DNA from: Planctomycetota bacterium
Lineage (GTDB): Bacteria; Planctomycetota; Planctomycetia; Pirellulales; Lacipirellulaceae
Assembly: GCA_039190745.1 (NCBI GenBank)
Contig: JBCCXZ010000023.1
Location: forward strand, 1-52,081
DNA: 52,081 bases
Direction of reading: 5' to 3'
Made by a program: the position numbers and the translations under genes. The notes under the pieces were generated by a model. That model ran no database searches and had not been told where the DNA came from. It saw only the letters and a program-made list of their open reading frames with translations. Below are positions 5,666 through 48,367 of the stretch, one piece after another. How positions within the stretch are numbered: the first letter of the stretch is position 1; the number at the start of each line of letters is the position of its first letter.

Positions 5666-6616
5666 ATGAAGGTTGCGCTGGCACAAATCGCGCCGAGCTG
5701 GCTAGATCGAGAAGCGACCGTTGCAAAAGTGGTTGACTGGATTGGGCGGGCGGCGAGGCAGGGGTGCGGGTTGGTGTGCTTCGGCGAGGCGCTCGTTCCG
5801 GGGTACCCGTTTTGGGTTGAGCGGACCGACGGGGCGCGGTTTGAGTCGGCGGAGCAGAAGGAGTGGTTTGCTCGGTACGCCGAGCAGGCTGTGGTCGTTG
5901 AGCGGGGAGATCTGGAGCCCATCCAAGCGGCGGCACGCGACGGGGGGCTTGCGGTCTACGTGGGGTGCATCGAACGGGCGCCTGACCGGGGCGGGCACAG
6001 CTTGTATTGCTCGCTGGCGTACATCGACGCGGCCGGAGAGATCGGCTCGGTTCACCGGAAGCTGATGCCAACGTATGAAGAGCGGCTGGTGTGGTCGATC
6101 GGCGACGGGCACGGGCTGCGGACGCACGGGCTGGGCGCGTTCACTGTGGGTGGGCTGAACTGCTGGGAGAACTGGCTGCCGCTGGCGCGGGCGGCGCTGC
6201 ACGGGATGGGCGAAGACCTGCACGTGGCGGTGTGGCCGGGTGGGCAATGGAACACGCGGGACGCGACACGGATGATGGCCCTGGAGAGCCGGTCCTACGT
6301 GCTGTCGGTCTCGGGGCTGATGCGGGCATCGGACGTGCCGAGAGGACTGCCCGGGGGCGAGGAGATTCTCAGGGACGGAGAAGCGTTGCTCGCCGACGGG
6401 GGTTCGTGCATTGCCGGGCCGGACGGCGCCTGGTTGGTGGAGCCAGTAGTGGGGCGGGAGGAGTTGATCGTTGCGGAGCTGGACCACGGTTTGGTGCCAA
6501 GGGAGCGGCAGAATCTGGACGGGTCGGGGCATTATGCGAGGCCGGATGTGCTTCGGCTGGTGGTCGACCGAAGGCGGCAGGGCGTGGTGGAGACGCTCGA
6601 TGAGCCCTCGGATTGA
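5666..6616 (+). CDS. Nitrilase (carbon-nitrogen hydrolase family)
   Basis: Glu-Lys-Cys triad contexts FGEALVPGYPFW, HRKLMPTYEER, LNCWENW; C-terminal GHYARPDV. Confidence 0.9.
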   Translation: MKVALAQIAPSWLDREATVAKVVDWIGRAARQGCGLVCFGEALVPGYPFWVERTDGARFESAEQKEWFARYAEQAVVVERGDLEPIQAAARDGGLAVYVGCIERAPDRGGHSLYCSLAYIDAAGEIGSVHRKLMPTYEERLVWSIGDGHGLRTHGLGAFTVGGLNCWENWLPLARAALHGMGEDLHVAVWPGGQWNTRDATRMMALESRSYVLSVSGLMRASDVPRGLPGGEEILRDGEALLADGGSCIAGPDGAWLVEPVVGREELIVAELDHGLVPRERQNLDGSGHYARPDVLRLVVDRRRQGVVETLDEPSD

Positions 6617-6677
6617 AGGCCTGTAAAGTCGGGGGCATGATGGTCGATATTGCGGGTATGCCCCGACAGGAAAGCTC

Positions 6678-6714
6678 GGGCGGCGTGGACTCACTTCGTC
6701 CCCTTTATTTTATT
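6678..6714 (+). terminator. Candidate intrinsic terminator after the nitrilase gene
   Basis: GGGCGGCGTG-gact-CACTTCGTCC stem (two G-U pairs, one mismatch) followed by CCTTTATTTTATT. Confidence 0.35.
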
Positions 6715-6726
6715 GGCTGGTTGAGT

Positions 6727-7758
6727 ATGTTCCGGATTCTGTCTTTGGCCGGCGGCGGGTTGCGCGGGGCGTTCGCCATTGGACTTCTCGGAGAGCTGGA
6801 GAAGCGGCTGGAGCACCCGCTAGCGCACTATTTCGACCTGATCGCGGGAACATCGACCGGCTCGATCACCGCGGCGTCGTTGTGCTGCGGGATGAAGGCG
6901 CAGGACGTCGAGGACTTCTACGCCAAGTTCTCGGAGAAGATTTTCCATCCGCGTGACCCGTACTCGCCGAAGGGCCTGTGGGGCGCGGTGTACCCAGCGT
7001 TGCGGTGGGCGGGCTCGACCCTGCTGGGACGAAACCTCGACCACTTTTTCCAGTCTCGGTACTGCCCTTTCAGCCTGACGGCTGCGATGGAAGACGCGTT
7101 TGGAAACCGGCCGATGCGGGGGGTTGAGCACTCGCGCCTGTTGATCCCCACGGTGAATCTGACCGACGGGATCACGGCGATTCTGCGCACACCGCACCTG
7201 CCTCGGCATGATCCGGCGTACGACTGGCGGGTGGCGGACGTGATCGTGGCGTCGGCGGCGGCGCCGACGTACTTCCCTCACAAGCGGATGCCCGATGGCA
7301 AAGACTACGCTGACGGCGGGCTGTGGGCTATCGACCCAGGCGTGGCGGCCCTGGCCGAGTCGGTGCGGATTATGGAGGACTGCTCTCGGGAGGAGGATTG
7401 CCGGTTCCAGCTCGACGAGGTGTGGATGCTGTCGATCGGCACGGGGCAGTCGGACTACTCGCTGTCCCCGCCCGACGCGGACGCTGGCATGCTCTACTGG
7501 GGCCAGCACGTGGCGGACGTGATGAGCATCTCGCAGGTGCAGGGGACGCAGCTGCCGCTGCGGATCGTTCTAGACCAGCGGTACCGTCAGGTGGACTTCG
7601 AGCTGGAGGACCCGAGCTGGACGCTGGACAACCTGCGGATCACCGGCGAGCTGTTCGACCGGGGACGGGAGGAGGGGGCGCGGCTTTTCGACGAGTTGCG
7701 GGAAACGTTCCTTAGTACGCCGACGGGTCGTTACACGGCCTACTCCGCTGCGGGTTAA
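6727..7758 (+). CDS. Patatin-like phospholipase (CapV-like motif set)
   Basis: ILSLAGGGLRG oxyanion loop, FDLIAGTSTG nucleophile, ASAAAPTYFP, DGGLW catalytic Asp. Start chosen at ATG 6727. Confidence 0.85.
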   Translation: MFRILSLAGGGLRGAFAIGLLGELEKRLEHPLAHYFDLIAGTSTGSITAASLCCGMKAQDVEDFYAKFSEKIFHPRDPYSPKGLWGAVYPALRWAGSTLLGRNLDHFFQSRYCPFSLTAAMEDAFGNRPMRGVEHSRLLIPTVNLTDGITAILRTPHLPRHDPAYDWRVADVIVASAAAPTYFPHKRMPDGKDYADGGLWAIDPGVAALAESVRIMEDCSREEDCRFQLDEVWMLSIGTGQSDYSLSPPDADAGMLYWGQHVADVMSISQVQGTQLPLRIVLDQRYRQVDFELEDPSWTLDNLRITGELFDRGREEGARLFDELRETFLSTPTGRYTAYSAAG

Positions 7759-7833
7759 CATTCGCTAAGGCGTGTGCTGTTAGTCCGAGTGGTTTTTTTC
7801 TATGGCTTCTCGTGTTTGGCGTGTTGGGCTACA

Positions 7834-7900
7834 TTCCGCACGGAAGCATCCGGATGAAGTCTTGCCTTAAGGCATTGACTTCACGCGTCCTTAACAATGC
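7834..7900. promoter_or_regulatory. Cluster of palindromic operator-like sites upstream of the DUF1559 gene
   Basis: TTCCGcaCGGAA (7834-7845), CATCCGGATG (7847-7856), TGCCTTAAGGCA (7863-7874), GCATTG...CAATGC (7872-7877/7895-7900). Confidence 0.4.
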
Positions 7901-7975
7901 CCCTCGCACCACCCCACCACCAAGCAATGGTCTCCAGCGCTGGCTGACTCTGGGGCTTCTAAGGAATCATCGCCT

Positions 7976-9106
7976 GTGATCGCTCCGAAAACCGTTCGCC
8001 ACGGACCGGCCTCTGACAGGTTTGCTCAGCCACGCCGCACTTTGCCACGGGGTTTCACGCTTGTTGAGCTGTTAGTTGTCATCGCGATCATCGGCGTGCT
8101 TGTGGCCCTGTTGTTGCCGGCTGTGCAGCAGGCGCGTGAGTCCGCCCGGCGGATCCAGTGCGTGAACAACTTGAAGCAGATTGGCCTGGCGGTGGCCAAC
8201 TACGAGGGAGTGCGTGGGTCGCTGCCGCCGGGCATGACCGCTTTTGGCGGCTTCCGCTACGGGCACTCGGTGCATGCCTTGCTGCTGCCCTACATCGAGC
8301 AAACGGCTCTGGCGGACCGCTGGGAATGGGGCGAAGGCTCTGACTTTGCCTCGCTGAACCGCGATGTTTTGAAGAATACCGAGGGCGGGCTGCAGGCGTT
8401 GACCGCGACGCTGATCGGGACTTACCTCTGCCCGTCGGACATCTTCACGGAGAACCCGTTCCAGACGACGTCGAACTATTTTGCCTCGCCTCCGCAGGGC
8501 GTGTGGTACGCGGGGACGAGCTACGGGGCGAATACGGGGACGACCGGTTACTGGCCCCAGTACGGCTACGCCTACGACGGCATGTTCAGCGTTGTTGGCA
8601 GCGGTTTCTATCTGCCTCGGAAGGACTTGGCGGTGAACGGAGAGTTCGATTCGGTGGACGGTTACCGGATCCCGCAGGTCGAAGACGGCATGAGCAACAC
8701 GATCGCCTTTGGTGAGAAGTACCACTTCGACCTCGTGCACGACCAGCTCCACGCCGACGGGTGCAGCCGCGTGCGGGAGCCGGTGTACAAGTTCTCCGCT
8801 TGGGCGTGCACCGGGGGGCACGATTGCATCGGCCACATGATGGGGGCTATGTACTACTCTCCCGTGGTGCGGTCTGGCGCGGTGCCGCCGATCAACTACC
8901 GTGTGACGCCGCGTGACGGTTGCAACTGGGAAACGCACGACAACCGCGTTGCCGGCTGGGGCAGCGGGCATCCCGGAGGGGCGAACTTTGTGTTCGGCGA
9001 CGGGGCCGTCCGATTCCTGGGCGACGACATCGATCGGGCCATCTTCCGTGCGGCCGCATTGCGTGCCGACGGCGAGGTGGTCGACCCCGATTTGCTCGGG
9101 GGTTGA
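7976..9106 (+). CDS. DUF1559 family prepilin-type (PulG-like) planctomycete protein
   Basis: [63 protein letters not shown]-terminal H-X9-DG motif [12 protein letters not shown]. Confidence 0.95.
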
Positions 9107-9108
9107 GC

Positions 9109-9552
9109 ATGAATCGGTTGCGCTGTAGCTCGATCGCTACGCTTGCCGTTGTGCTGGCAGTTGTCGGCTGTGGTCGGGAGCTGCCCGAGACGGCCGCTGT
9201 GACGGGGACGGTGACCGTCGGGGGCCAGCCGCTCGACGAGGTCAGCGTGCTCTTTATCCCGTCGAGCTCGGGTAAGTTCTCGGGGATCACCAGCTCCGAC
9301 ATCACCGACGCGGACGGGCGTTTCGAGCTGGAGTATAAGCTGCCGGATCCAAAAGACCCCAGCAAGCCAACGTTCGGCCCGGGCGCCATGCCGGGGAGCT
9401 ACGCCGTGGTGGTGAGCGACTACCGGATGCTCTCGGAGATGCTCGATCCTCCGGGGCGTGTGCCCGAGCATTACGGCGACGCGGGGACTACGCCGTTGGA
9501 GTGCGTGGTTGGCACGGACGATCTCGTGTTCGACATCGAAGTGGCGCCTTAG
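9109..9552 (+). CDS. Lipoprotein with carboxypeptidase-regulatory-like fold (usual DUF1559 partner)
   Basis: [21 protein letters not shown] lipobox; [34 protein letters not shown] motifs; starts 2 nt after the DUF1559 stop. Confidence 0.85.
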
Positions 9553-9569
9553 GCGCGCTTTGCGGCCGG

Positions 9570-10604
9570 TTAGCCCATCCACTGGAGCCAACGGCCGTGG
9601 GGATCGAACTCGGCAAGGGTGCGCTCGTAGACGAGTTGCGATGCTTCGTATCGATTGAGGATCAGGCCCTCTTCGCTCTCGGCGGAGACGTGCCAGAGCG
9701 GGCGTTCGGCGGATGCTTCGGCCAGGACCGCCTTGAGTTTGTCCCGCTGCGGCGGCGTGAATTGGTAGAGGACCGAGCTGTTGTAGACGCAGAGGGCCGC
9801 GCCAGGCGAGGCGGCTGCGAGCAGCGGCCTGAGTTCGAGGAGCGCATCCCCTCGGACGATTGCGGGCGGGCCTTCTCGCGTCGCGATTTCAATTGCTTTG
9901 TCGAGCCGCTGCTTACGGTAACGCTGATCCGGCCAGAGCAGCGCGTGCAGCCAGGCCCGCTGGTCGCGGTCGGTGATGTCGATCGGGCTGAGGTCTAAGC
10001 CGGTGCGGCTCGCGATCTCTGGGCGTTGCGGCAGGTCCGGCGGCAAGGATGTGCCACGCATCTCCGTCGACAACACGAGTTCGGAGCCGGGATCACCGAG
10101 CACTCCGCCGTCGGGGTAGTCGATCCGGTAGCGGTCCCAGAAAAGGTTGAGGCCGGCGCTGGCTCCGATCTCGACGAGCGCCAGCGGGCGGGCACCAGAC
10201 TCTCGGTAGACGACCGACAGCGCCGGAGCGAGGAAGGTCGAGCGATTGACTTCGTTCGTCTGCACGATGCGCGTGGCGACGAGTTGTTTGATCGCCTCGG
10301 CGTGGCTGCAGCAGAAGTCGGTGAAGGTCTCTGAGAGGCTCTCGTCGACGCCGCTGCCCCGAGTGAGAGCGGCGTAGCGGTCGCTAAGCGGGTGCGTCGA
10401 TCCATTCAGGACGAGGTAGTGGACCGCGGCCAAAAAGACGTTCGGCGCCGGCGGACGGGAGGCGTGCGCGGCGAGGCCGAGCAGCGCGCTGTTTCGGGCC
10501 GTGAGCCTCGATAGCAGACCGTAACAGGGCGAGCCGAGTTCCTCGCAGACATCGCCAAACTCAAGGAAAAGGTCGGCAAGTTCTTGCTGGGTCGGCTTAG
10601 GCAT
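9570..10604 (-). CDS. DUF2332 family protein (methyltransferase-like fold, unknown function)
   Basis: QTNEVNRS, LVEIGASAGLNL, GLDLSPID, WLHALLWPDQ..R..RL motifs; ATG at 10604 lies 44 nt downstream of the displaced dnaA stop. Confidence 0.8.
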   Translation of the reverse strand: MPKPTQQELADLFLEFGDVCEELGSPCYGLLSRLTARNSALLGLAAHASRPPAPNVFLAAVHYLVLNGSTHPLSDRYAALTRGSGVDESLSETFTDFCCSHAEAIKQLVATRIVQTNEVNRSTFLAPALSVVYRESGARPLALVEIGASAGLNLFWDRYRIDYPDGGVLGDPGSELVLSTEMRGTSLPPDLPQRPEIASRTGLDLSPIDITDRDQRAWLHALLWPDQRYRKQRLDKAIEIATREGPPAIVRGDALLELRPLLAAASPGAALCVYNSSVLYQFTPPQRDKLKAVLAEASAERPLWHVSAESEEGLILNRYEASQLVYERTLAEFDPHGRWLQWMG

Positions 10605-10648
10605 GCCCTCAGCATAGCAGGATGTGCGTGGCCCTTGCCGGCAGTCGT

Positions 10649-10738
10649 TCAAGCCGACCGCAGCACCGACTCCACGCGACGCAGGGCCTCTTCCACGTGC
10701 ACCGGCTGGCTGCGCAGCTCGATCGTATCGCCGGCGTT
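10649..10738 (-). pseudogene. dnaA: Displaced duplicate of the dnaA 3' end (29 codons + stop)
   Basis: Translates NAGDTIELRSQPVHVEEALRRVESVLRSA* versus SDGETIELHSQPVHVEEALRRVESVLRSA* at 14114-14203; 80/90 nt identical by manual alignment. Confidence 0.95.
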
Positions 10739-13700
10739 GGTGGTTTTCTCCCACCTCAGCAGCAATCCGTGGGTCTTTTCAGTGGCGTAACGGTTCGCGC
10801 TACGGGCGGTTTGTGGCAATCTATTCCGCGCAGACCCGCAGCCGAGCGGATCGTTCCGGCTACCCTCACTCCACTCTAAGGGGCAATCCATGCAAGACCG
10901 TGTCACGGGCAAGTGGACGCTGGGCACACTGGAGAAACTCGAGAAGCGTCTCAACCTCGACGGCAAACTGCTTAAAGACGGAGCCGCTTTGGTTACTTTT
11001 GCAACGGTTGCAACGGGTACTGGTGACCTTCAATCGGGCATCTTTGCTGGCCTCATTACGAAGACGGCCGGCGCCGCACTGACGGCCGGGACCAATCTGC
11101 TCGAGCGGCTACGGTTGCCGCCGTTTAACGAAGAGACTTCTCTACCGACCCATGAACGGTTTCAGGTGCTGACTTACTGCTTCTGCATGAAGTCGTTCGT
11201 CGCTGCAGTTGACGAGCTGGTGCAAAGCACTGAGTTCGAGGAGGCGTGCGCGCGTTTGGCAAATGAGGTCGCCGTCGAGTCGCCCGGGCTAGAAGCGGTC
11301 AGGCTGGTGGAGAGCAATGCGGATGCGATCCGGCACCGCGCGCAGAACATTGAGGAGGCGGAGCTCTACCTGCAAGCGGGTTCACAGATCGACAAAGGCG
11401 TGGTGCCGCTTCTGGCCGCCTTTTCGGAATGGCTGGCAAACTACCTGGCGGACACAAGGCTTGCGGAGCACGTCGAAGGCCTCGACGAAGAGAGTCTCCG
11501 GTCTCGTTTCGGCAATCGGCTCACGCTGGATCTAGCGAGCGACTCCGACGACGCCAGAGCAATCCGTGATTATCTGGGGATCCAGGCAGACATGGCCACG
11601 ATCGGCTCAGCAGACACGATGGGCGCCGTTCACGATCTCCTGAAAGGTTGGATCGCGGAACAGACTCACGACCCTACCAAGGAGAAATGGGACGCATACC
11701 GAGAACACCTCCGGTCGCTCCCGGACCAGTCGTCTACGATGTTCGCGGAGGATTTCGGGGTAGCCGAAGTCTTTCAAGTGCCGATGCTTGGGCACTACAT
11801 CCAGCAGCCGCCAGCGCACGGCGTGCATGCATCGCAGGGGTCGGCGAGTCAGATTCTCGGGGCGCTCCTCAGCCAGCGCTATTCGTCCCGTAACCTTATG
11901 CTGCTGTGCGGCGGTCCCGGCTCTGGGAAGTCGACGCTCTGCCGGATGCTGGTCAGCGTGCTGGCGGAGAAGCCGAACGTCCACCCCGTATTCATCCGGC
12001 TCCGCCAACTCAAGCAGGCGGCGTCGGTCGACGGCCTGATCATCGATCACTTAACGGAACGAGGGCTGATCACGAGAGTCGATGAGATCGCAGAGCTCAC
12101 GAACCTCTACATCATCCTGGACGGTTTCGACGAGGTGGTGATGGCCGACCGCAACCGTCTGACGACGATCTTTCGGGAACTGCGCGAAGCGTTAGAGGAC
12201 AGCCGTTTTCAGAACGCGCGGGTCCTGATTGCGGGCCGGGACACGCTGTTTCCCAACGGCGACGGCTTGCCGCTGGGGGCCCACATCCTCAAGATCCTGC
12301 CGTTTGACGAGCGACGGGTGACCAACTGGGGGAGGAAGTGGCGAGGGAAGCACCCGACCGGCCCCGGTAAGAGCTTTGCCCCCGAGAACTACCTCGACAA
12401 GAACGCCGGCGAGGACACCAGTGACCTCCACGAGCTTGCCACGTGGCCGTTGACGCTCCACCTGATTGCTCGGGTGCACACGTCGGGGGGCCTCGACGGC
12501 TCTCCGGAGCAGCTCAAGGGCTTGCGCAAGGCCTATCTCTACCGGAGCATCCTCGCAGAGATCGGGCTGAGGCAGCAGGACCAGGTCCCCGGTGAAGATC
12601 GGTTGTCCGGCGATCAGTTGCGGCAGTTGGCTCGGGCTTGCGCCTGGATGCTGTATTGCCGCGGGGCGGAATCGGCGCCGTTCGACGATGTGCGTCCGCT
12701 GATCAGAGAGATGTTTCCCGACCTCCCCGACGAGGCGGGCTCCCGGTTTACCGAGGTGGCGATCTGCAATACGCCGCAGTTCAAACAGGGAGCAGAAGGC
12801 GGCTTCGAGTTCATCCATAAGACGTTTGCCGAGTTCCTCGTCGCGGAGCACATCACCGCGCAAGTCGAACAAGCTTCGCAGAAGGGGCCAAGCTACTCGC
12901 TGTCGGGCAAGGACGAGATTCAGTGGTTGCTCGATGACGAGGCAGCAACGAGTAAGCTCGGGCAGTGCTTCGCCGTGAGGTCGGTGCCGGAAGAGATATT
13001 AATAATGGTCGAACCAATGCTGGGCTGCCTGCGGCCGTTCATAGCCGGCTCATCCGCGCTAGAAGTGGTGCCTCTGGAGCATCGCAGGGAACCTTTGCGG
13101 GACATCCTGGCGCGATTGAACAACCTCTTCGCCCGCGCATTGTTGGAAGACCCCACGCCACTACTGTTGCTCCCGCGAGACGCCGCAGTCGAGAGACCGC
13201 AGGGCACTCTACAGATGCTGGCGAACTATGTGGGCGGTCTTGCAGATCTCGGCGGCTGTGCCGCCAGTGAATGGTCTGGGCGTGCAATGGAATCTAATGG
13301 AGAGGAGCCGGTGTTCAATGCAGAGCCTTTTGAGGGCGCATTCTGGCGATACGTCTGTCTGCGGCATGCCGGAGGAGCTTCGTGGTCACCCGCGTTCTCT
13401 CGATACGGAAGGGCATACTTAATCCCTTCTGAAGATCGCTTGGTGCCGTTTGAATTGCATTCGCTCGCAGAAGCTCAAGACTGGGACGCGACAATCCAGT
13501 CGTTACTCGGCAAACTCGAGGATACCATTGAGCTTGCTAGGCTATTAGCGGAGTTCAGCATGCTCTTTCCAAGAGGAGACCTCATTCAATCAAGACGTAT
13601 TGCCAAAGAGTCCGATGGCCGTGCGTTCGAGACAGTCTTTCGTTGCGCCTTGTCGGAAACACTACATTCTATACTAGGAACAGTAAACTCCTCACTGCAC

Positions 13701-14203
13701 AGACAACTGGGCGGCACCATCACGAAACCCGTTAGCCCAGCCGAACGTGTTTCAAGAGCATATCCGAGACATTACTTGTTGGACGAGGCTACCCTCGAAG
13801 CATCACGACTGGTTCGTGCCTCACTGAACGCAAGAAGCACAGATGAGGTACATCTCGACAGAGTGACTCAGTTATTCATGGATATCGAGAAGCGGTGTTT
13901 CGACGTAGCAAGACAGCTAAGCTCCATTGATGCGACAACTCAGATTGAGAATATAGTCGAAAGACGCTTTCATGAACTGTCTTCACGAATGCATGATATT
14001 AAGCTATGGCAAAGTACACACGATCCAAGAGGTGAAGAGTAGATACCAAAGAAGAGCCTACTGCTGCAGGCAACCGCTAATGATGCCCGAAGTGCATCAC
14101 GCACAAGAAGTTGCTAGGCCGACCGGAGCACTGACTCCACGCGACGCAAGGCCTCTTCCACGTGCACCGGCTGGCTGTGCAGCTCGATCGTTTCGCCGTC
14201 GCT
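10739..14203. mobile_element. 3.47-kb single-gene islet at the dnaA 3' end (no integrase)
   Basis: Bounded by the duplicated dnaA 3' end; visibly AT-richer than the flanks; carries only the NACHT gene. Confidence 0.7.
10890..14042 (+). CDS. NACHT-domain STAND NTPase (bacterial NLR-related protein), 1050 aa
   Basis: Walker A GGPGSGKST, PVFIRLR, Walker B YIILDGFDEV, VLIAGR, HD1 LATWPLTLHLI, winged-helix FEFIHKTFAEFLVAE; AAGGGG RBS before the ATG. Confidence 0.88.
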   Translation: MQDRVTGKWTLGTLEKLEKRLNLDGKLLKDGAALVTFATVATGTGDLQSGIFAGLITKTAGAALTAGTNLLERLRLPPFNEETSLPTHERFQVLTYCFCMKSFVAAVDELVQSTEFEEACARLANEVAVESPGLEAVRLVESNADAIRHRAQNIEEAELYLQAGSQIDKGVVPLLAAFSEWLANYLADTRLAEHVEGLDEESLRSRFGNRLTLDLASDSDDARAIRDYLGIQADMATIGSADTMGAVHDLLKGWIAEQTHDPTKEKWDAYREHLRSLPDQSSTMFAEDFGVAEVFQVPMLGHYIQQPPAHGVHASQGSASQILGALLSQRYSSRNLMLLCGGPGSGKSTLCRMLVSVLAEKPNVHPVFIRLRQLKQAASVDGLIIDHLTERGLITRVDEIAELTNLYIILDGFDEVVMADRNRLTTIFRELREALEDSRFQNARVLIAGRDTLFPNGDGLPLGAHILKILPFDERRVTNWGRKWRGKHPTGPGKSFAPENYLDKNAGEDTSDLHELATWPLTLHLIARVHTSGGLDGSPEQLKGLRKAYLYRSILAEIGLRQQDQVPGEDRLSGDQLRQLARACAWMLYCRGAESAPFDDVRPLIREMFPDLPDEAGSRFTEVAICNTPQFKQGAEGGFEFIHKTFAEFLVAEHITAQVEQASQKGPSYSLSGKDEIQWLLDDEAATSKLGQCFAVRSVPEEILIMVEPMLGCLRPFIAGSSALEVVPLEHRREPLRDILARLNNLFARALLEDPTPLLLLPRDAAVERPQGTLQMLANYVGGLADLGGCAASEWSGRAMESNGEEPVFNAEPFEGAFWRYVCLRHAGGASWSPAFSRYGRAYLIPSEDRLVPFELHSLAEAQDWDATIQSLLGKLEDTIELARLLAEFSMLFPRGDLIQSRRIAKESDGRAFETVFRCALSETLHSILGTVNSSLHRQLGGTITKPVSPAERVSRAYPRHYLLDEATLEASRLVRASLNARSTDEVHLDRVTQLFMDIEKRCFDVARQLSSIDATTQIENIVERRFHELSSRMHDIKLWQSTHDPRGEE

Positions 14204-15553
14204 CACCAGTCGGTCGACCTTCTGCTGGGCGCTGATGACGGTGCTGTGGCTGCGGCGGCCGAAATAGTCGCCGATTTCTGTGAGGGCGCTGCGGGTGTAT
14301 TTGCGAGCGAGCCACATGGCGACCATCCGCGGCTGCGTCGTGACGCGGGCCTTGCTGCCCGACTTGAGGCTGGCCGGTTCGACGCCGAAGACCTCGCAGA
14401 CGGCCCGCTGGATGTCGGCAAGCTTCACGGGCGGTGCGGTCTGCTGGGTGAACTCGGCGACGACCTGCTCGGCGAGCAGCGTGTCGATGGGCCGCTTGTG
14501 GGCCTGGCTGGTGGCGAGCAAGCGATTCATGGCGCCGGCGATCAGGCGGGCGCTGCCGGCGACGCCCGCGGCGATGCGGTCGATCACCTCGTCGCTGAGC
14601 TCGATGCGCATCCGGCCGGCCATGGCGCGGACGATGCCGGCGCGGGTGGCGAAGTCGGGCGGGTCGACCGCGACGGCGAGGCCGCCGGCGATGCGGCTGG
14701 CCAGGTCGGGGCTGATCTCTTTCAGTTCGCCGGGGCCGCGGTCGGCGGTGAGCACGACCTGACGGCCGAGTTGCTGCAGCGTGTCGAGCGTGTGGAGCGC
14801 CTCGTCGAGGGTGGCCTTCTTGCCGGCGAGGAAGTGCACGTCGTCGACGAGCAGGATGCCGAGAGTGCGGAACTTCTGGCGGAAGCTGGGGAGCGTGCGG
14901 CTGTCGAGCGACTGGAGGAACTCGCCGGTGAACTGCTCGGCCGTGACGCGCAGGGTCGTGTGGCTGCCGCGGGCGCGGTCGGCGATCGCACGCAGCAGGT
15001 GCGTTTTGCCGACGCCGTTGGGGCCGTAGATCAAGAGCGGGCAGTAGCGGCCCGGGTGCGTGGCGGCGGTCTGAGCCGACCGCACGGCGAGCGCGTTCGA
15101 CTCGCCCTCGACAAAACGGGCGAAGGTGCAGCGCTCCGGCCGGACCGGCGACGGGGCGGCGTGGCGGAGGGCGGAAGGATAGGCAGCGGGGCGTTCGGTC
15201 GAGTGCGTCGGTGCTGCCGGCTCAGCCGCTGCTGCGTTTTGTTGTTCGCCGCGCTCCGCCTGGGGGGCGGGCTGCCGTTCTGCGTCTTGGGTGTCGACGG
15301 TTGATTCGTCCACGACGTACCGGAGCGTGATGTTGGGTCCCAGTGCCGACTCGAGCGCTTCCTTGAGCGTCCCGTGGAGCCTCCTCCTCAGCCACGCGCA
15401 CTCGAACTCGGAGCCGCAGCGCACCTGGAGCGTTTGCCCTTCTAGCTGGAGCGCGGCCCGCGAGCCGACCCAGAGTTCGGCCCTCTCCGCCCCCAACCGT
15501 CGGACTAATTCGTCGCGAAATCCAGACAGCCTGTCTGTCGCATCCATGGTCAC
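14114..15553 (-). CDS. dnaA: Chromosomal replication initiator DnaA
   Basis: TFARFVEGESNALA, PLLIYGPNGVGKTHLL, LLVDDVHFL, domain IV PRMVAMWLARKYT...LTEIGDYFGRRSHSTVISA. Start GTG 15553 or ATG 15547. Confidence 0.95.
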   Translation of the reverse strand: MTMDATDRLSGFRDELVRRLGAERAELWVGSRAALQLEGQTLQVRCGSEFECAWLRRRLHGTLKEALESALGPNITLRYVVDESTVDTQDAERQPAPQAERGEQQNAAAAEPAAPTHSTERPAAYPSALRHAAPSPVRPERCTFARFVEGESNALAVRSAQTAATHPGRYCPLLIYGPNGVGKTHLLRAIADRARGSHTTLRVTAEQFTGEFLQSLDSRTLPSFRQKFRTLGILLVDDVHFLAGKKATLDEALHTLDTLQQLGRQVVLTADRGPGELKEISPDLASRIAGGLAVAVDPPDFATRAGIVRAMAGRMRIELSDEVIDRIAAGVAGSARLIAGAMNRLLATSQAHKRPIDTLLAEQVVAEFTQQTAPPVKLADIQRAVCEVFGVEPASLKSGSKARVTTQPRMVAMWLARKYTRSALTEIGDYFGRRSHSTVISAQQKVDRLVSDGETIELHSQPVHVEEALRRVESVLRSA

Positions 15554-15622
15554 GTCCTGCCCTCAGCCAGCCCGCGCGGCGCCGGGTTCTCCGCCCGACC
15601 CTCCACGAGAGCGATCCATTCG

Positions 15623-15746
15623 GCAGTCGAGCATTGGGCGACGCTCCCCTTCTTGGGATGCGTTGTCGCTCGTGACGCGACGCGGCGACCGGCTTGGGTC
15701 GCCTGTGGTCTGACGAGTCTGCGACGGGCTGCCCACCCTCGACTGC
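15623..15746 (-). ncRNA. Candidate structured cis-regulatory leader upstream of dnaA
   Basis: Nested complementary segments: 15623-15631/15738-15746 (9 bp), 15635-15639/15731-15735, 15641-15648/15655-15663, 15665-15673/15713-15725, 15684-15690/15697-15703. Confidence 0.3.
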
Positions 15747-15754
15747 GGGGGGCG

Positions 15755-15774
15755 ATTCTAAGAACGCTAGCGTT
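15755..15774 (-). promoter_or_regulatory. Putative dnaA -10 element and palindromic operator
   Basis: TAGAAT on the minus strand (15760-15755); perfect palindrome AACGCTAGCGTT (15763-15774); adjacent A7 tract. No canonical -35 at 17-nt spacing. Confidence 0.4.
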
Positions 15775-15919
15775 TCAAAAAAAGGACTTGACCGACAAGA
15801 AGCAGCACTCAGCTGGCGCCGGGGCGGTTGCGCGGCCGTTTGTAAGGGTTTGGCGAGGGCGACGGGGGCCGGCTCGTGTTGCGGCTTCTGGTGGAAAGCC
15901 TGTCGCGCGGGAGAGCGAC

Positions 15920-16828
15920 TCAGACTGCGTTCGGAATCAGCACGGCATGTACTGACTTGCTCTGGAAGCGCTGAAATCCTGCACGCGTGTACATTCGGAG
16001 TGCGGGTTCGTTCGACGCATCGACCGCCAAGACGAGCCGTTCGGCGTGGTTCTCGCGGCTACGCCATTGGGCAAAACGCACGATGTCGTGCCCCCAACCG
16101 TTGCCGCGAGCGGAAGGGACGACGCCCATGTAGACCAGCTCGATGACCGGCGACGGGTGCCTGGCGAGGATGAGCACGCCGACGTCCTCTCCGTCCGCAG
16201 AGGCGGTAAACCACAAATCGGGGTCGTGCTCGCCCTGGTGTTTGTAGCCTTCCAGCACATCGCCGGTTGACCGCACGCCGCTGAGCTTGGGGCAGTCGAG
16301 GGAATCGATGTAGGTCTCGTCGACCGCGGAGGTCATCCGGTCGCGTGCCTCCTCGCCAACGGTTTGGAACCGTAGCGGCGTGGCAGGCTGTTCTCGGGGG
16401 AACGTGTCGGCGGGGGCACCGAGGTAGTCGAGGTCGACGAGGTGGGGGAAACCGGTCTCGGCGAGGAGTTGCCGGCGCTGGGCGTCTCGCGGGTCGACCA
16501 GGGTTTGGGCCAACGAGAGGCCGGCTTCCCGCGCTTGGCTGCTGGTGGATTCGAGGATCGAGCGAGCGGCGTGTCGATCGGGCCGCGGAGGCCAGAGCAC
16601 CCCGGTTCTGCCGGGCAGCATCTGCAACCAGCCGGCGTTGGCGATGCCGTCGCGGTCGTCACGACCGATCCACAAGCCTCGGAAGTCGGGCGCGGCTTCG
16701 GCGTTGACTGTTTCTAGCGCGGCGACCAGCCCCGGTTGCTGGTCGGGCGGCTGAGCGTCGTAGAGCACCCGCAGCGCCTCGGGGACGGCTTCGGCGGGGC
16801 ATCATTCTGCCTGGCAGGGTGCGTTCAC
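15920..16828 (-). CDS. GNAT family N-acetyltransferase; possible in-frame TGA at codon 9
   Basis: ELVYMGVVPSARGNGWG, LVLAVDASNEPALRMYTRAGF, TYIDSLDCP. The open frame starts at GTG 16768, but the same frame reads MNAPCQAE*CPAEAVPEALR from GTG 16828. Confidence 0.85.
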
Positions 16829-16876
16829 ACGCTCACCATAGCCGACCCCGGCGTTGCGTTGCGAGGTCGACCCGGG

Positions 16877-17767
16877 TCACCGGTAGCGGTGCAGCTTGTC
16901 GAGGTCTTCCACGCGTGGCTGGGGCACGAGTGTGCGGGGGGACTTCCAGGCGTTCTCCGGCTTCAGCGGCGGTTGAGCAACCTCGGCCTCCGGGGCCTCT
17001 TCGGGAGGGGCGGCCTGGGCAGCGGCGGCCTGTTGAGGGGGCTGCTGCGTGGCCTGCGGGCTGTGCGCTGTCTGCGGCGGGTTAGCCGGAAGCTGTGGCA
17101 CAGCGTCCGGAGGCAGGGGGCGTGCCGTCTCTGGACGCTGCAGGTGCATCACGAAGCTGAAGCTCTCGTGCGGCAGGCTGTCCCAGAGGACGCTGGCGGG
17201 CTTGGTGCGGAGCTCGCTGACGACCAACTCGCCCGAACGGAGCTGAAAGAGCTGCTGGGCAGGCAGGGGCGTTGGTTGTCGGGCCATGCCGAAGCGGCGG
17301 GTCGCCAGTGCGACCAGCCGGGAGGTGTCGGCCGTCCGGCCGCGGAGGGTGATCCGATGCACGCGGTTGTCGGCGCCGAAGTAGTAAGTGAGCGACCCGG
17401 CGACGTCGTCCAGGCGGGTGCCGGTGACTAGCGGAACACGGACGCCGTACCAGTCGATCTCGGCGAGGCCGGTCGACTTGCGCGGCCAGTGGTGATAGAC
17501 CCACTCTTTGCTGACATCCAGGTTGAGCGCCTGTTCGAGCGACAAGGCCGCGTGCCCGGCGAGCGGGGTCGAGGAAGGGAAGAGCCTCGCCTCGGGCGGC
17601 GTGGAGAGCGCTTCGACCGACTTGCCGGGGGCGGCCGGGCTGGAATTCGCCGGGCTGGTCACTCCGGAGACGCCGTTCTCGAGCCACTCGGGCGGGTTGT
17701 TGGCCACGTAGGGGACGCCGACCGATGCGGCGACCAGGACAGGCATGGCTAGGGCTCGGGGGAACAC
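16877..17767 (-). CDS. Planctomycete hypothetical protein (DUF6690-like)
   Basis: N-terminal hydrophobic segment ending GVPY; conserved-looking WVYHHWPRKSTGL...RVPLVTGTRLDDVAGSLTYYF; family name from recall. Confidence 0.65.
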   Translation of the reverse strand: MFPRALAMPVLVAASVGVPYVANNPPEWLENGVSGVTSPANSSPAAPGKSVEALSTPPEARLFPSSTPLAGHAALSLEQALNLDVSKEWVYHHWPRKSTGLAEIDWYGVRVPLVTGTRLDDVAGSLTYYFGADNRVHRITLRGRTADTSRLVALATRRFGMARQPTPLPAQQLFQLRSGELVVSELRTKPASVLWDSLPHESFSFVMHLQRPETARPLPPDAVPQLPANPPQTAHSPQATQQPPQQAAAAQAAPPEEAPEAEVAQPPLKPENAWKSPRTLVPQPRVEDLDKLHRYR

Positions 17768-17804
17768 GGCGTGATAATCCAGGGGAGGGTTCTCGTGGCG
17801 ACAA

Positions 17805-17879
17805 CTGTGGGAGGCTTCTCCGAAGCCGATGACGGTTTCTGTAGCGAAGCGTAATCGGGCTCGGAGAGCCCTCCCACAG
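17805..17879. repeat. REP doublet (REPIN-like), copy 1
   Basis: GTGGGAGGCTTCTCCGAAGCCGAT ... ATCGGGCTCGGAGAGCCCTCCCAC inverted pair; 17847-17879 is identical to 48307-48339. Confidence 0.85.
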
Positions 17880-48264: not shown

Positions 48265-48339
48265 TGTGGCAGGCCTCTCCGAGGCCGATGGCGTTATCCT
48301 TTGGTAAAGCGTAATCGGGCTCGGAGAGCCCTCCCACAG
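48265..48339. repeat. REP doublet (REPIN-like), copy 2
   Basis: GTGGCAGGCCTCTCCGAGGCCGAT ... ATCGGGCTCGGAGAGCCCTCCCAC; same 75-bp length as copy 1, 33 nt identical. Confidence 0.85.
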
Positions 48340-48367
48340 TAGCCACTGGATAGCAGGCGGACGGGGC

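Follow-up and report, generated by a model that had tools for sequence, protein, structure and literature searches.

Displaced dnaA ends and a NACHT gene behind the orphan dnaA of a planctomycete genus

How does the end of a gene come to lie twice on one strand, with a single long gene between the copies and no integrase beside them? This question is raised by a 52,081-nt contig (C23, JBCCXZ010000023.1; the whole contig is referred to here as the window) of a 3.9 Mb metagenome assembly of a planctomycete (the source genome, G000), in which the end of an orphan dnaA gene recurs behind a gene for a NACHT protein. The original prediction for this locus offered two explanations, namely a minimal element that uses dnaA as its attachment site (attB) or a homology-anchored exchange at a landing pad for defence genes. 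A comparison with the only other genome of the genus, in addition to searches in more distant genomes, reveals two stacked insertions at this dnaA; neither a dedicated dnaA attB nor a defence-specific landing pad is supported.

The repeated dnaA end and the allele of the congener

The final 90 nt of dnaA are present at positions 10649-10738 and 14114-14203 of the window, both on the minus strand at an offset of 3465 bp, and the two copies are identical at 80 of 90 nt, in agreement with the original prediction. When the dnaA end is searched by BLASTN in the entire 3.9-Mb genome, the far copy is returned with E=7e-30 and the second-best match has E=0.01. The NACHT gene, which is convergent on dnaA and matches PF05729, is the sole long gene between the copies, as had been described.

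The genus consists of two genomes in the collection, and the sole congener (G001, a 4-contig assembly of 4.9 Mb) provides the allele that is empty of the NACHT gene. In G001, dnaA is followed after 46 bp by a DUF2332 gene, and this junction matches the far copy of the source genome together with the DNA downstream of it (83% over 1.15 kb). The synteny of the two genomes delimits the islet as a G000-only insertion of 3372 bp, with an overlap of 94 nt on the G001 side. Because G001 joins dnaA directly to DUF2332, the far copy in the source genome is the displaced resident end and the attached end arrived with the NACHT gene, which bears out the direction suggested earlier.

A displaced dnaA end is also found in G001 itself, behind DUF2332 (G001:C1:310917-311343; L031:12918-13344). 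It starts near codon 305, covers approximately 525 nt of dnaA with approximately 100 nt lost internally, lacks the stop codon, and is 93.7% identical over the last 316 nt. The displaced tail of the source genome starts at approximately codon 451, i.e. the two junctions are approximately 145 codons apart and do not share a codon, a point on which the original prediction had asked for a comparison. With two cargos and two junctions, two independent events have occurred at the orphan dnaA, and the fear that the insertion might be a one-off is removed by the congener. DUF2332 came first and the NACHT gene later and closer to dnaA, i.e. the insertions are stacked, and within this planctomycete genus the interval from the orphan dnaA to a patatin-like gene forms a variable slot. 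Among the 120 genomes of the family, DUF2332 exceeds the cut-off in five, and it is located on the dnaA contig in this genus only.

The genome is a metagenome assembly and the stretch is present in one run only, which could suggest that two strains were joined at the repeat. However, a single Logan contig of run X1 covers positions 6403-17875 without a gap at an even depth of 9.1, both junctions included; X1 is the probable source sample and hence is not independent of the assembly, and runs X2 and X3 are without the organism. The longest identical stretch between the copies is 28 nt, which is too short to collapse a 31-mer graph and makes a misjoin unlikely. Additionally, the displaced copy holds private changes that resemble decay, and the same kind of structure is present in the 4-contig congener. 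A strain chimera, named by the original prediction as a refutation, is considered extremely unlikely. No empty-site or circle joint was found in the contigs of X1-X3, from which rare forms are dropped.

The differences between the copies comprise four synonymous codons, four amino-acid-changing codons and a stop swap (TAG in the attached copy, TGA in the displaced copy). These counts are as first reported; a simple, even divergence as coding sequence is not borne out by them. The displaced copy alone has the four amino-acid changes, with three at its left edge, and both G001 copies are equal to the attached copy in amino acid, which suggests that the junction or later decay, rather than divergence as coding sequence, is marked by these changes. 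The stop swap and all synonymous changes are confined to the last 12 codons of the repeat: the preceding 16 codons have no synonymous difference and these 12 have 5 (Fisher p=0.008, post hoc). The copies thus look unevenly diverged, with an extreme tail as distant as that of another species and a preceding part that is conspecific or homogenised. A crowding of silent changes into the last 12 codons is expected if gene ends hitchhike with their cargo.

The absence of any synonymous difference in codons -26 to -13 would also be in keeping with a long target duplication, in which a break or a stalled fork let foreign DNA in, the host dnaA tail was copied, and its last 12 codons were later replaced or mutated. 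Restriction-modification (R-M) genes are described as inserting with long variable duplications in the absence of other mobile elements, mainly in species that are naturally competent (PMC2853133). The islet is similar in that the repeat is longer than 30 bp, the insert is shorter than 20 kb and mobile genes are absent; the closest NACHT relatives in other phyla (37-40% identity), with none in the 119 other family genomes, also favor such an origin. However, none of the five changes in the last 12 codons alters an amino acid or removes the stop, a pattern that requires a coding donor, and the stop codon is the exact end of the repeat, both here and in most of the other scars described below. 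The cargo is one NACHT gene, without restriction or modification genes and without a nuclease match in any search. A target duplication is therefore regarded as very unlikely.

The features of the slot are collected in Table 1. The dnaA of the window is not the only one in the source genome: a second dnaA precedes dnaN-gyrB on contig C50 (L120:6743-12248), and the dnaA-dnaN-gyrB region is unaffected by the insertion. This dnaN-gyrB-linked gene is shorter and has a weaker ATPase-domain match (E=5e-12 vs 1e-41), the better-conserved dnaA being the orphan copy. Elsewhere in the window, positions 17804-17879 and 48306-48340 belong to a dispersed palindromic repeat family with 122 BLAST matches in the genome, and a perfect 71-nt fold-back at the contig start (1-71 / 72-142, together 1-142) is probably an assembly or library artefact.

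Table 1. Features of the variable slot behind the orphan dnaA (positions in the window)
Feature	Position	Strand	Evidence or remark
Orphan dnaA, 479 aa (not beside dnaN)	14114..15553	-	Pfam PF00308 E=1e-41, PF08299 E=1.6e-22
Attached (incoming) dnaA tail, last 29 codons + TAG	14114..14203	-	followed by DNA not in G001
Terminator-like hairpin, 43 nt past the new dnaA stop	14056..14071	-	weak: 3 found vs 3.2 expected by chance
NACHT/STAND NTPase, 1050 aa	10890..14042	+	PF05729, aa 336-484; convergent on dnaA
Inserted islet, 3375 bp, no recombinase	10739..14113		GC 0.585 vs 0.649 for the genome
Displaced resident dnaA tail, ~codons 451-479 + TGA	10649..10738	-	sequence comparison, G001 junction
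DUF2332 gene, older cargo of the same site	9570..10604	-	PF10094; G001 comparison
DUF1559 gene + small open reading frame (ORF)	8042..9552	+	G000-specific; in G001, another gene and the long dnaA remnant occupy this segment
Patatin-like gene, conserved distal flank in both genomes	6622..7758	+	PF01734; 84.5% to G001

Displaced gene ends in other genomes and at other genes

A profile of the last 40 dnaA residues was used to search the family set (120 genomes) and an order set (401 genomes) for displaced tails, with limited sensitivity for remnants that are short, much diverged, old or split between contigs. In the family set, where 116 genomes were matched, a nearby second dnaA tail is present in G000 and G001 only; the other second matches are 12 weak ones, on other contigs or at distances above 1 Mb, and a contig of G100 that is duplicated. 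In the order set, 378 genomes were matched, six of them with two matches, and a nearby displaced tail is again found in G000 and G001 only. The second matches in G247 and G251 are 98% contig-end overlaps rather than displaced tails, and that in G301 is not similar at the DNA level. The DNA behind dnaA was also compared with itself in another 12 genomes of the family (17-18 kb in 11 of them, 2 kb in one) and at 77 distant loci from metagenomes (4 kb or more in 35); no dnaA remnant was revealed, and no dnaA of more than 54% identity was found in the metagenome scan. The orphan dnaA is a hot slot in this genus rather than an attachment site used generally across the genomes searched. A stand-alone 124-codon dnaA 3' fragment (G228:C34; L275:4608-4982), of which 363 nt are 79% identical to the full dnaA of the same genome, lies on another contig than that gene (contigs C3 and C34) and is a possible third case, in another family.

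Scars of the same kind are present at other genes. A scan for displaced ends, for which genes were called by our own caller, covered the whole of G000 (2901 genes) and 1.63 of the 4.9 Mb of G001 (1172 genes). In G000, displaced 3' ends are located behind the genes for glutamine synthetase III (contig C54) and a KefC-like antiporter (C56), and behind an unassigned gene of C6 (L115, L116 and L118); empty alleles for the antiporter and C6 sites are present in G001. At the C6 site, the attached copy has gained a non-homologous last 20 codons, and the displaced copy keeps the G001-type end. In G001, behind a deaminase gene lie two displaced ends, 157 and 172 nt in length (G001:C2:200347-203139; L159:347-3139), which are separated by low-GC single-gene cargos and whose left edges differ by 15 nt; the corresponding slot in G000 contains two small unassigned ORFs. 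The islets measure 0.7-3.4 kb, and GC content is mostly low in the cargos (0.54-0.60), with 0.66 for DUF2332.

The cargo at glutamine synthetase III is a LysR and Rieske oxygenase pair, and the other cargos encode proteins without a Pfam family, some of which may be PEP-CTERM-like, as judged from a motif. With these and DUF2332 among the cargos, the defence-specific part of the landing-pad proposal is not retained, and its homology-anchored part is the one that fits best.

The scan also returned 17 short, diverged fragments on the same strand as their genes. Eight of the nine downstream fragments include the 3' end (seven of eight when the C75 repeat is dropped), and four of the eight upstream fragments include the 5' end. 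The repeats of C13 and C75 in G000 are dispersed palindromic repeats and were dropped as scars. Two mirror cases were noted in G000 (C20:2153-2894 and C76:2456-3085), in which the 5' end of a gene is duplicated 0.5-0.6 kb upstream; as judged from reading the sequence, the C20 gap holds two small ORFs resembling a toxin-antitoxin pair, and the C76 gene resembles clpB. Among 155 adjacent block pairs of G000 and G001, 55 are replacements and 33 are one-sided insertions, and a long overlap is found at dnaA only. Displaced-tail scars, at approximately 1.5-2 per Mb, are a minority of the accessory differences, most of which are replacements between conserved genes.

Recombinases and the route of insertion

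No recombinase is linked to the dnaA insertions, in accordance with the islet having been described as free of an integrase. Tyrosine recombinases are absent from contig C23 (10 matches elsewhere in G000), and the nearest of the seven matches in G001 is approximately 250 kb from dnaA. No large serine recombinase was found, and no recombinase remnant was called in the islets. The islets share no end motif. A 13-14-nt word beside two junctions, picked post hoc, has four matches in 119 other genomes vs five for its reversed control and was rejected; a shared 7-mer was also discarded, as one common to 4 of 8 random intergenic windows arises in 16% of draws. Hairpins at the junctions are unremarkable, with z-scores of -0.2 to -1.1 and +0.8. 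A minimal element with dnaA as its fixed attB is not upheld, given the different junctions, the lack of a shared end motif and of a linked recombinase, and the absence of such a tail from the other order genomes searched.

A decayed form of such an element was considered separately. An element with a tyrosine integrase and a replacement dnaA end would have integrated site-specifically and lost its integrase, leaving a cis-mobilizable element (CIME) with later tandem accretion, and a helper integrase could act in trans. The anatomy of the locus corresponds to attachment sites attL and attR with 3'-end restoration, as described for icd/icdC (PMC13626634) and, with tandem accretion, for CIMEs (PMC5704250). 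That one gene was used repeatedly, in both congeners, fits site specificity, the tyrosine recombinase matches of both genomes could serve in trans, and loss of the integrase and trimming of the displaced copy could both result from deletions. A 3'-end duplicate linked to an integrase exists in the source genome: on contig C45, the 3' end of a menaquinone-biosynthesis gene and the DNA downstream of it recur 24 kb away, inverted, beside a tyrosine integrase (L121:3015-3884 and L122:6730-8874), apparently an integrase element at a protein-coding gene that has been rearranged. However, left edges that lie approximately 145 codons apart at dnaA and 15 nt apart at the deaminase gene do not define a fixed crossover, and the displaced piece in G001 spans approximately 525 nt of dnaA. 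The lack of a shared end motif and of a called recombinase remnant in islets of 0.7-3.4 kb also argues against this account, as does the absence of an intact element at dnaA in the 378 order genomes with a tail match. At least five target genes would each need a lost integrase of their own. This origin is considered doubtful.

The reading preferred here, which is regarded as probable, is the homology-anchored addition of a gene end and its cargo from a relative, through the single crossover of a circle or through homology-facilitated illegitimate recombination (HFIR). The donor would have been a relative with the NACHT gene already in place behind dnaA, and its DNA would have entered the cell and recombined through the dnaA homology by host recombination, presumably dependent on RecA, rather than by a site-specific integrase. 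Because only one side is homologous, the piece would be added rather than swapped. By the circular route, a fragment consisting of the dnaA end and the NACHT gene would have circularised and crossed over once; by the linear route, of the HFIR type, a crossover in dnaA would have been followed by illegitimate rejoining back inside dnaA. Either route would rebuild dnaA with the donor end and push the resident end and the downstream gene 3.4 kb away.

There are precedents for this mechanism. In E. coli conjugation with one-sided homology, 56 of 60 recombinants are reported to carry a duplication of the lacZ end (109-950 bp in 14 sequenced), which is attributed to circularisation and a single crossover (Amarir-Bouhram et al. 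2011, PMC3240628). The same model is proposed for rhs tips (Jackson et al. 2009, PMC2935791), and the same logic is applied to effector-immunity arrays of the Vibrio type VI secretion system (T6SS) (Kirchberger et al. 2017, PMC5361080). As at rhs loci, displaced fragments of variable length from close relatives are stacked downstream without an integrase. A second, different insertion in the sister species points to ordinary recombination with the DNA of relatives rather than to a dedicated mobile element. With respect to entry, comEC and dprA are present in both genomes, a weak indication since they are also in most control genomes, and a gene-transfer agent as vehicle received no match in G000 for the head families PF04860 and PF03237.

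Several observations weigh against the homology-anchored addition. In a genus of two genomes, no donor that combines the attached allele with the same cargo and no conspecific empty site were found, and the metagenome scan stayed at or below 54% identity for dnaA. The 90-nt repeat, with its 89% identity, offers RecA a short substrate. Nearly identical codons -26 to -13 could reflect a true target duplication, deletions that remove an integrase and eat into the displaced copy can also yield variable junctions, and the C45 duplicate indicates that integrase elements of this anatomy occur in the source genome. Additionally, two hits at one dnaA, with none nearby in the other genomes searched, exceed the site fidelity of a random process. 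A further proposal is an integrase-free, integron-like capture, in which circles of a gene tail and one cargo would excise between tail repeats, pass from cell to cell among relatives and re-enter through a single crossover, so that the orphan dnaA end and several other gene ends would act as reusable, stacking cassette slots for defence or niche genes; this is considered quite unlikely.

The NACHT cargo and the comparison with known systems

Homologs of the NACHT protein are approximately 1000 aa in length and number 129 among 8000 candidates scored, with a best identity of 37-40%. They are scattered over phyla, the named members including actinobacteria, myxobacteria, alphaproteobacteria and Desulfobacteraceae, and the family is present in one of the 120 family genomes, the other 119 being without it. 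The Walker columns are invariant among the homologs. A structure model with a predicted local distance difference test (pLDDT) of 74 has NLRC4, NOD2 and NLRP3 as its top folds (Foldseek E~1e-9 for NLRC4/NOD2), and the N-terminal region is helical, with PF22735 precomputed on several homologs.

The GC content at third codon positions (GC3) is 0.685, within the lowest 2% of genes. The C-terminal third (positions 12990-14042) has a GC3 of 0.52 vs 0.77 for the rest of the gene and is unconserved among the homologs, and the last 160 residues are low in model confidence, conservation and GC. This third may be a swapped sensor domain. PADLOC returned weak P-loop matches and no convincing model for the cargo. 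Inspection of the loci of three close relatives revealed no flanking repeats and no dnaA-like ORF.

By analogy with the published defence role of bacterial NACHT proteins (Kibby et al., bioRxiv 10.1101/2022.07.19.500537), the gene probably encodes an NLR-related anti-phage protein. It resembles the proteins described in that preprint in its central NACHT module, NLR-like fold, helical N-terminal region and patchy distribution, and differs from them in that no named effector or repeat sensor domain is assigned to it and its anti-phage activity is predicted.

With the insertions described here, the gene of a replication initiator joins the known anchors of additive gene capture. These insertions provide a natural example of two events at one site, with an empty allele in the congener and a cargo of an NLR-related family (defence role predicted) whose relatives extend across phyla. 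A new mobile element is not demonstrated by them. If the homology-anchored reading is true, displaced gene tails would be a countable scar of the first entry of genes into integrase-free hotspots, a step left unexplained by double-crossover models. Such hotspots are reported to be common (PMC5635113; PMC2884548). No literature naming dnaA as such a target was found; supplementary target-gene tables of island surveys may list it, the main text of a review of integrative mobilizable elements does not mention it, and preprints rich in dnaA mentions use dnaA as a coordinate origin only and not as an insertion target.

The architecture itself is already known from rhs loci, T6SS arrays, R-M insertions and CIMEs, and what is notable here is the target gene, the two stacked events and the empty allele. 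As reported for rhs loci (PMC2935791) and T6SS arrays (PMC5361080), an intact gene is followed by cargo and by displaced ends of variable length, with the newest insert nearest the intact gene and no integrase. However, the anchor here is a housekeeping gene whose protein end is nearly unchanged, and the cargo is a separate gene rather than a new toxin tip. The single-crossover and HFIR products (PMC3240628) are alike in that one-sided homology yields a partial gene-end duplication of variable length flanking new DNA; these were obtained in laboratory E. coli with an engineered plasmid, and classical HFIR leads to deletion rather than duplication, whereas the mechanism proposed for dnaA is read from sequence. 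In e14 at icd/icdC (PMC13626634) and in CIMEs (PMC5704250), as described there, an incoming 3' end likewise restores the target, the old end is displaced to the far side and elements stack in tandem, but those elements possess, or once possessed, a site-specific integrase and cross over at a fixed position, whereas the junctions here differ and no integrase is linked. R-M insertions (Furuta et al. 2010, PMC2853133) share the small defence cargo between long direct repeats and the lack of mobile genes; the cargo here is not R-M, and the repeats differ by silent changes and end at the stop codon. Finally, the integrase-free hotspots of horizontal gene transfer (Oliveira et al. 2017, PMC5635113) resemble the present locus as a variable slot between conserved genes, and the 55 replacement loci of this genus are of that kind. 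A double crossover leaves no duplicate, however, and the displaced tail represents a rarer, additive event.

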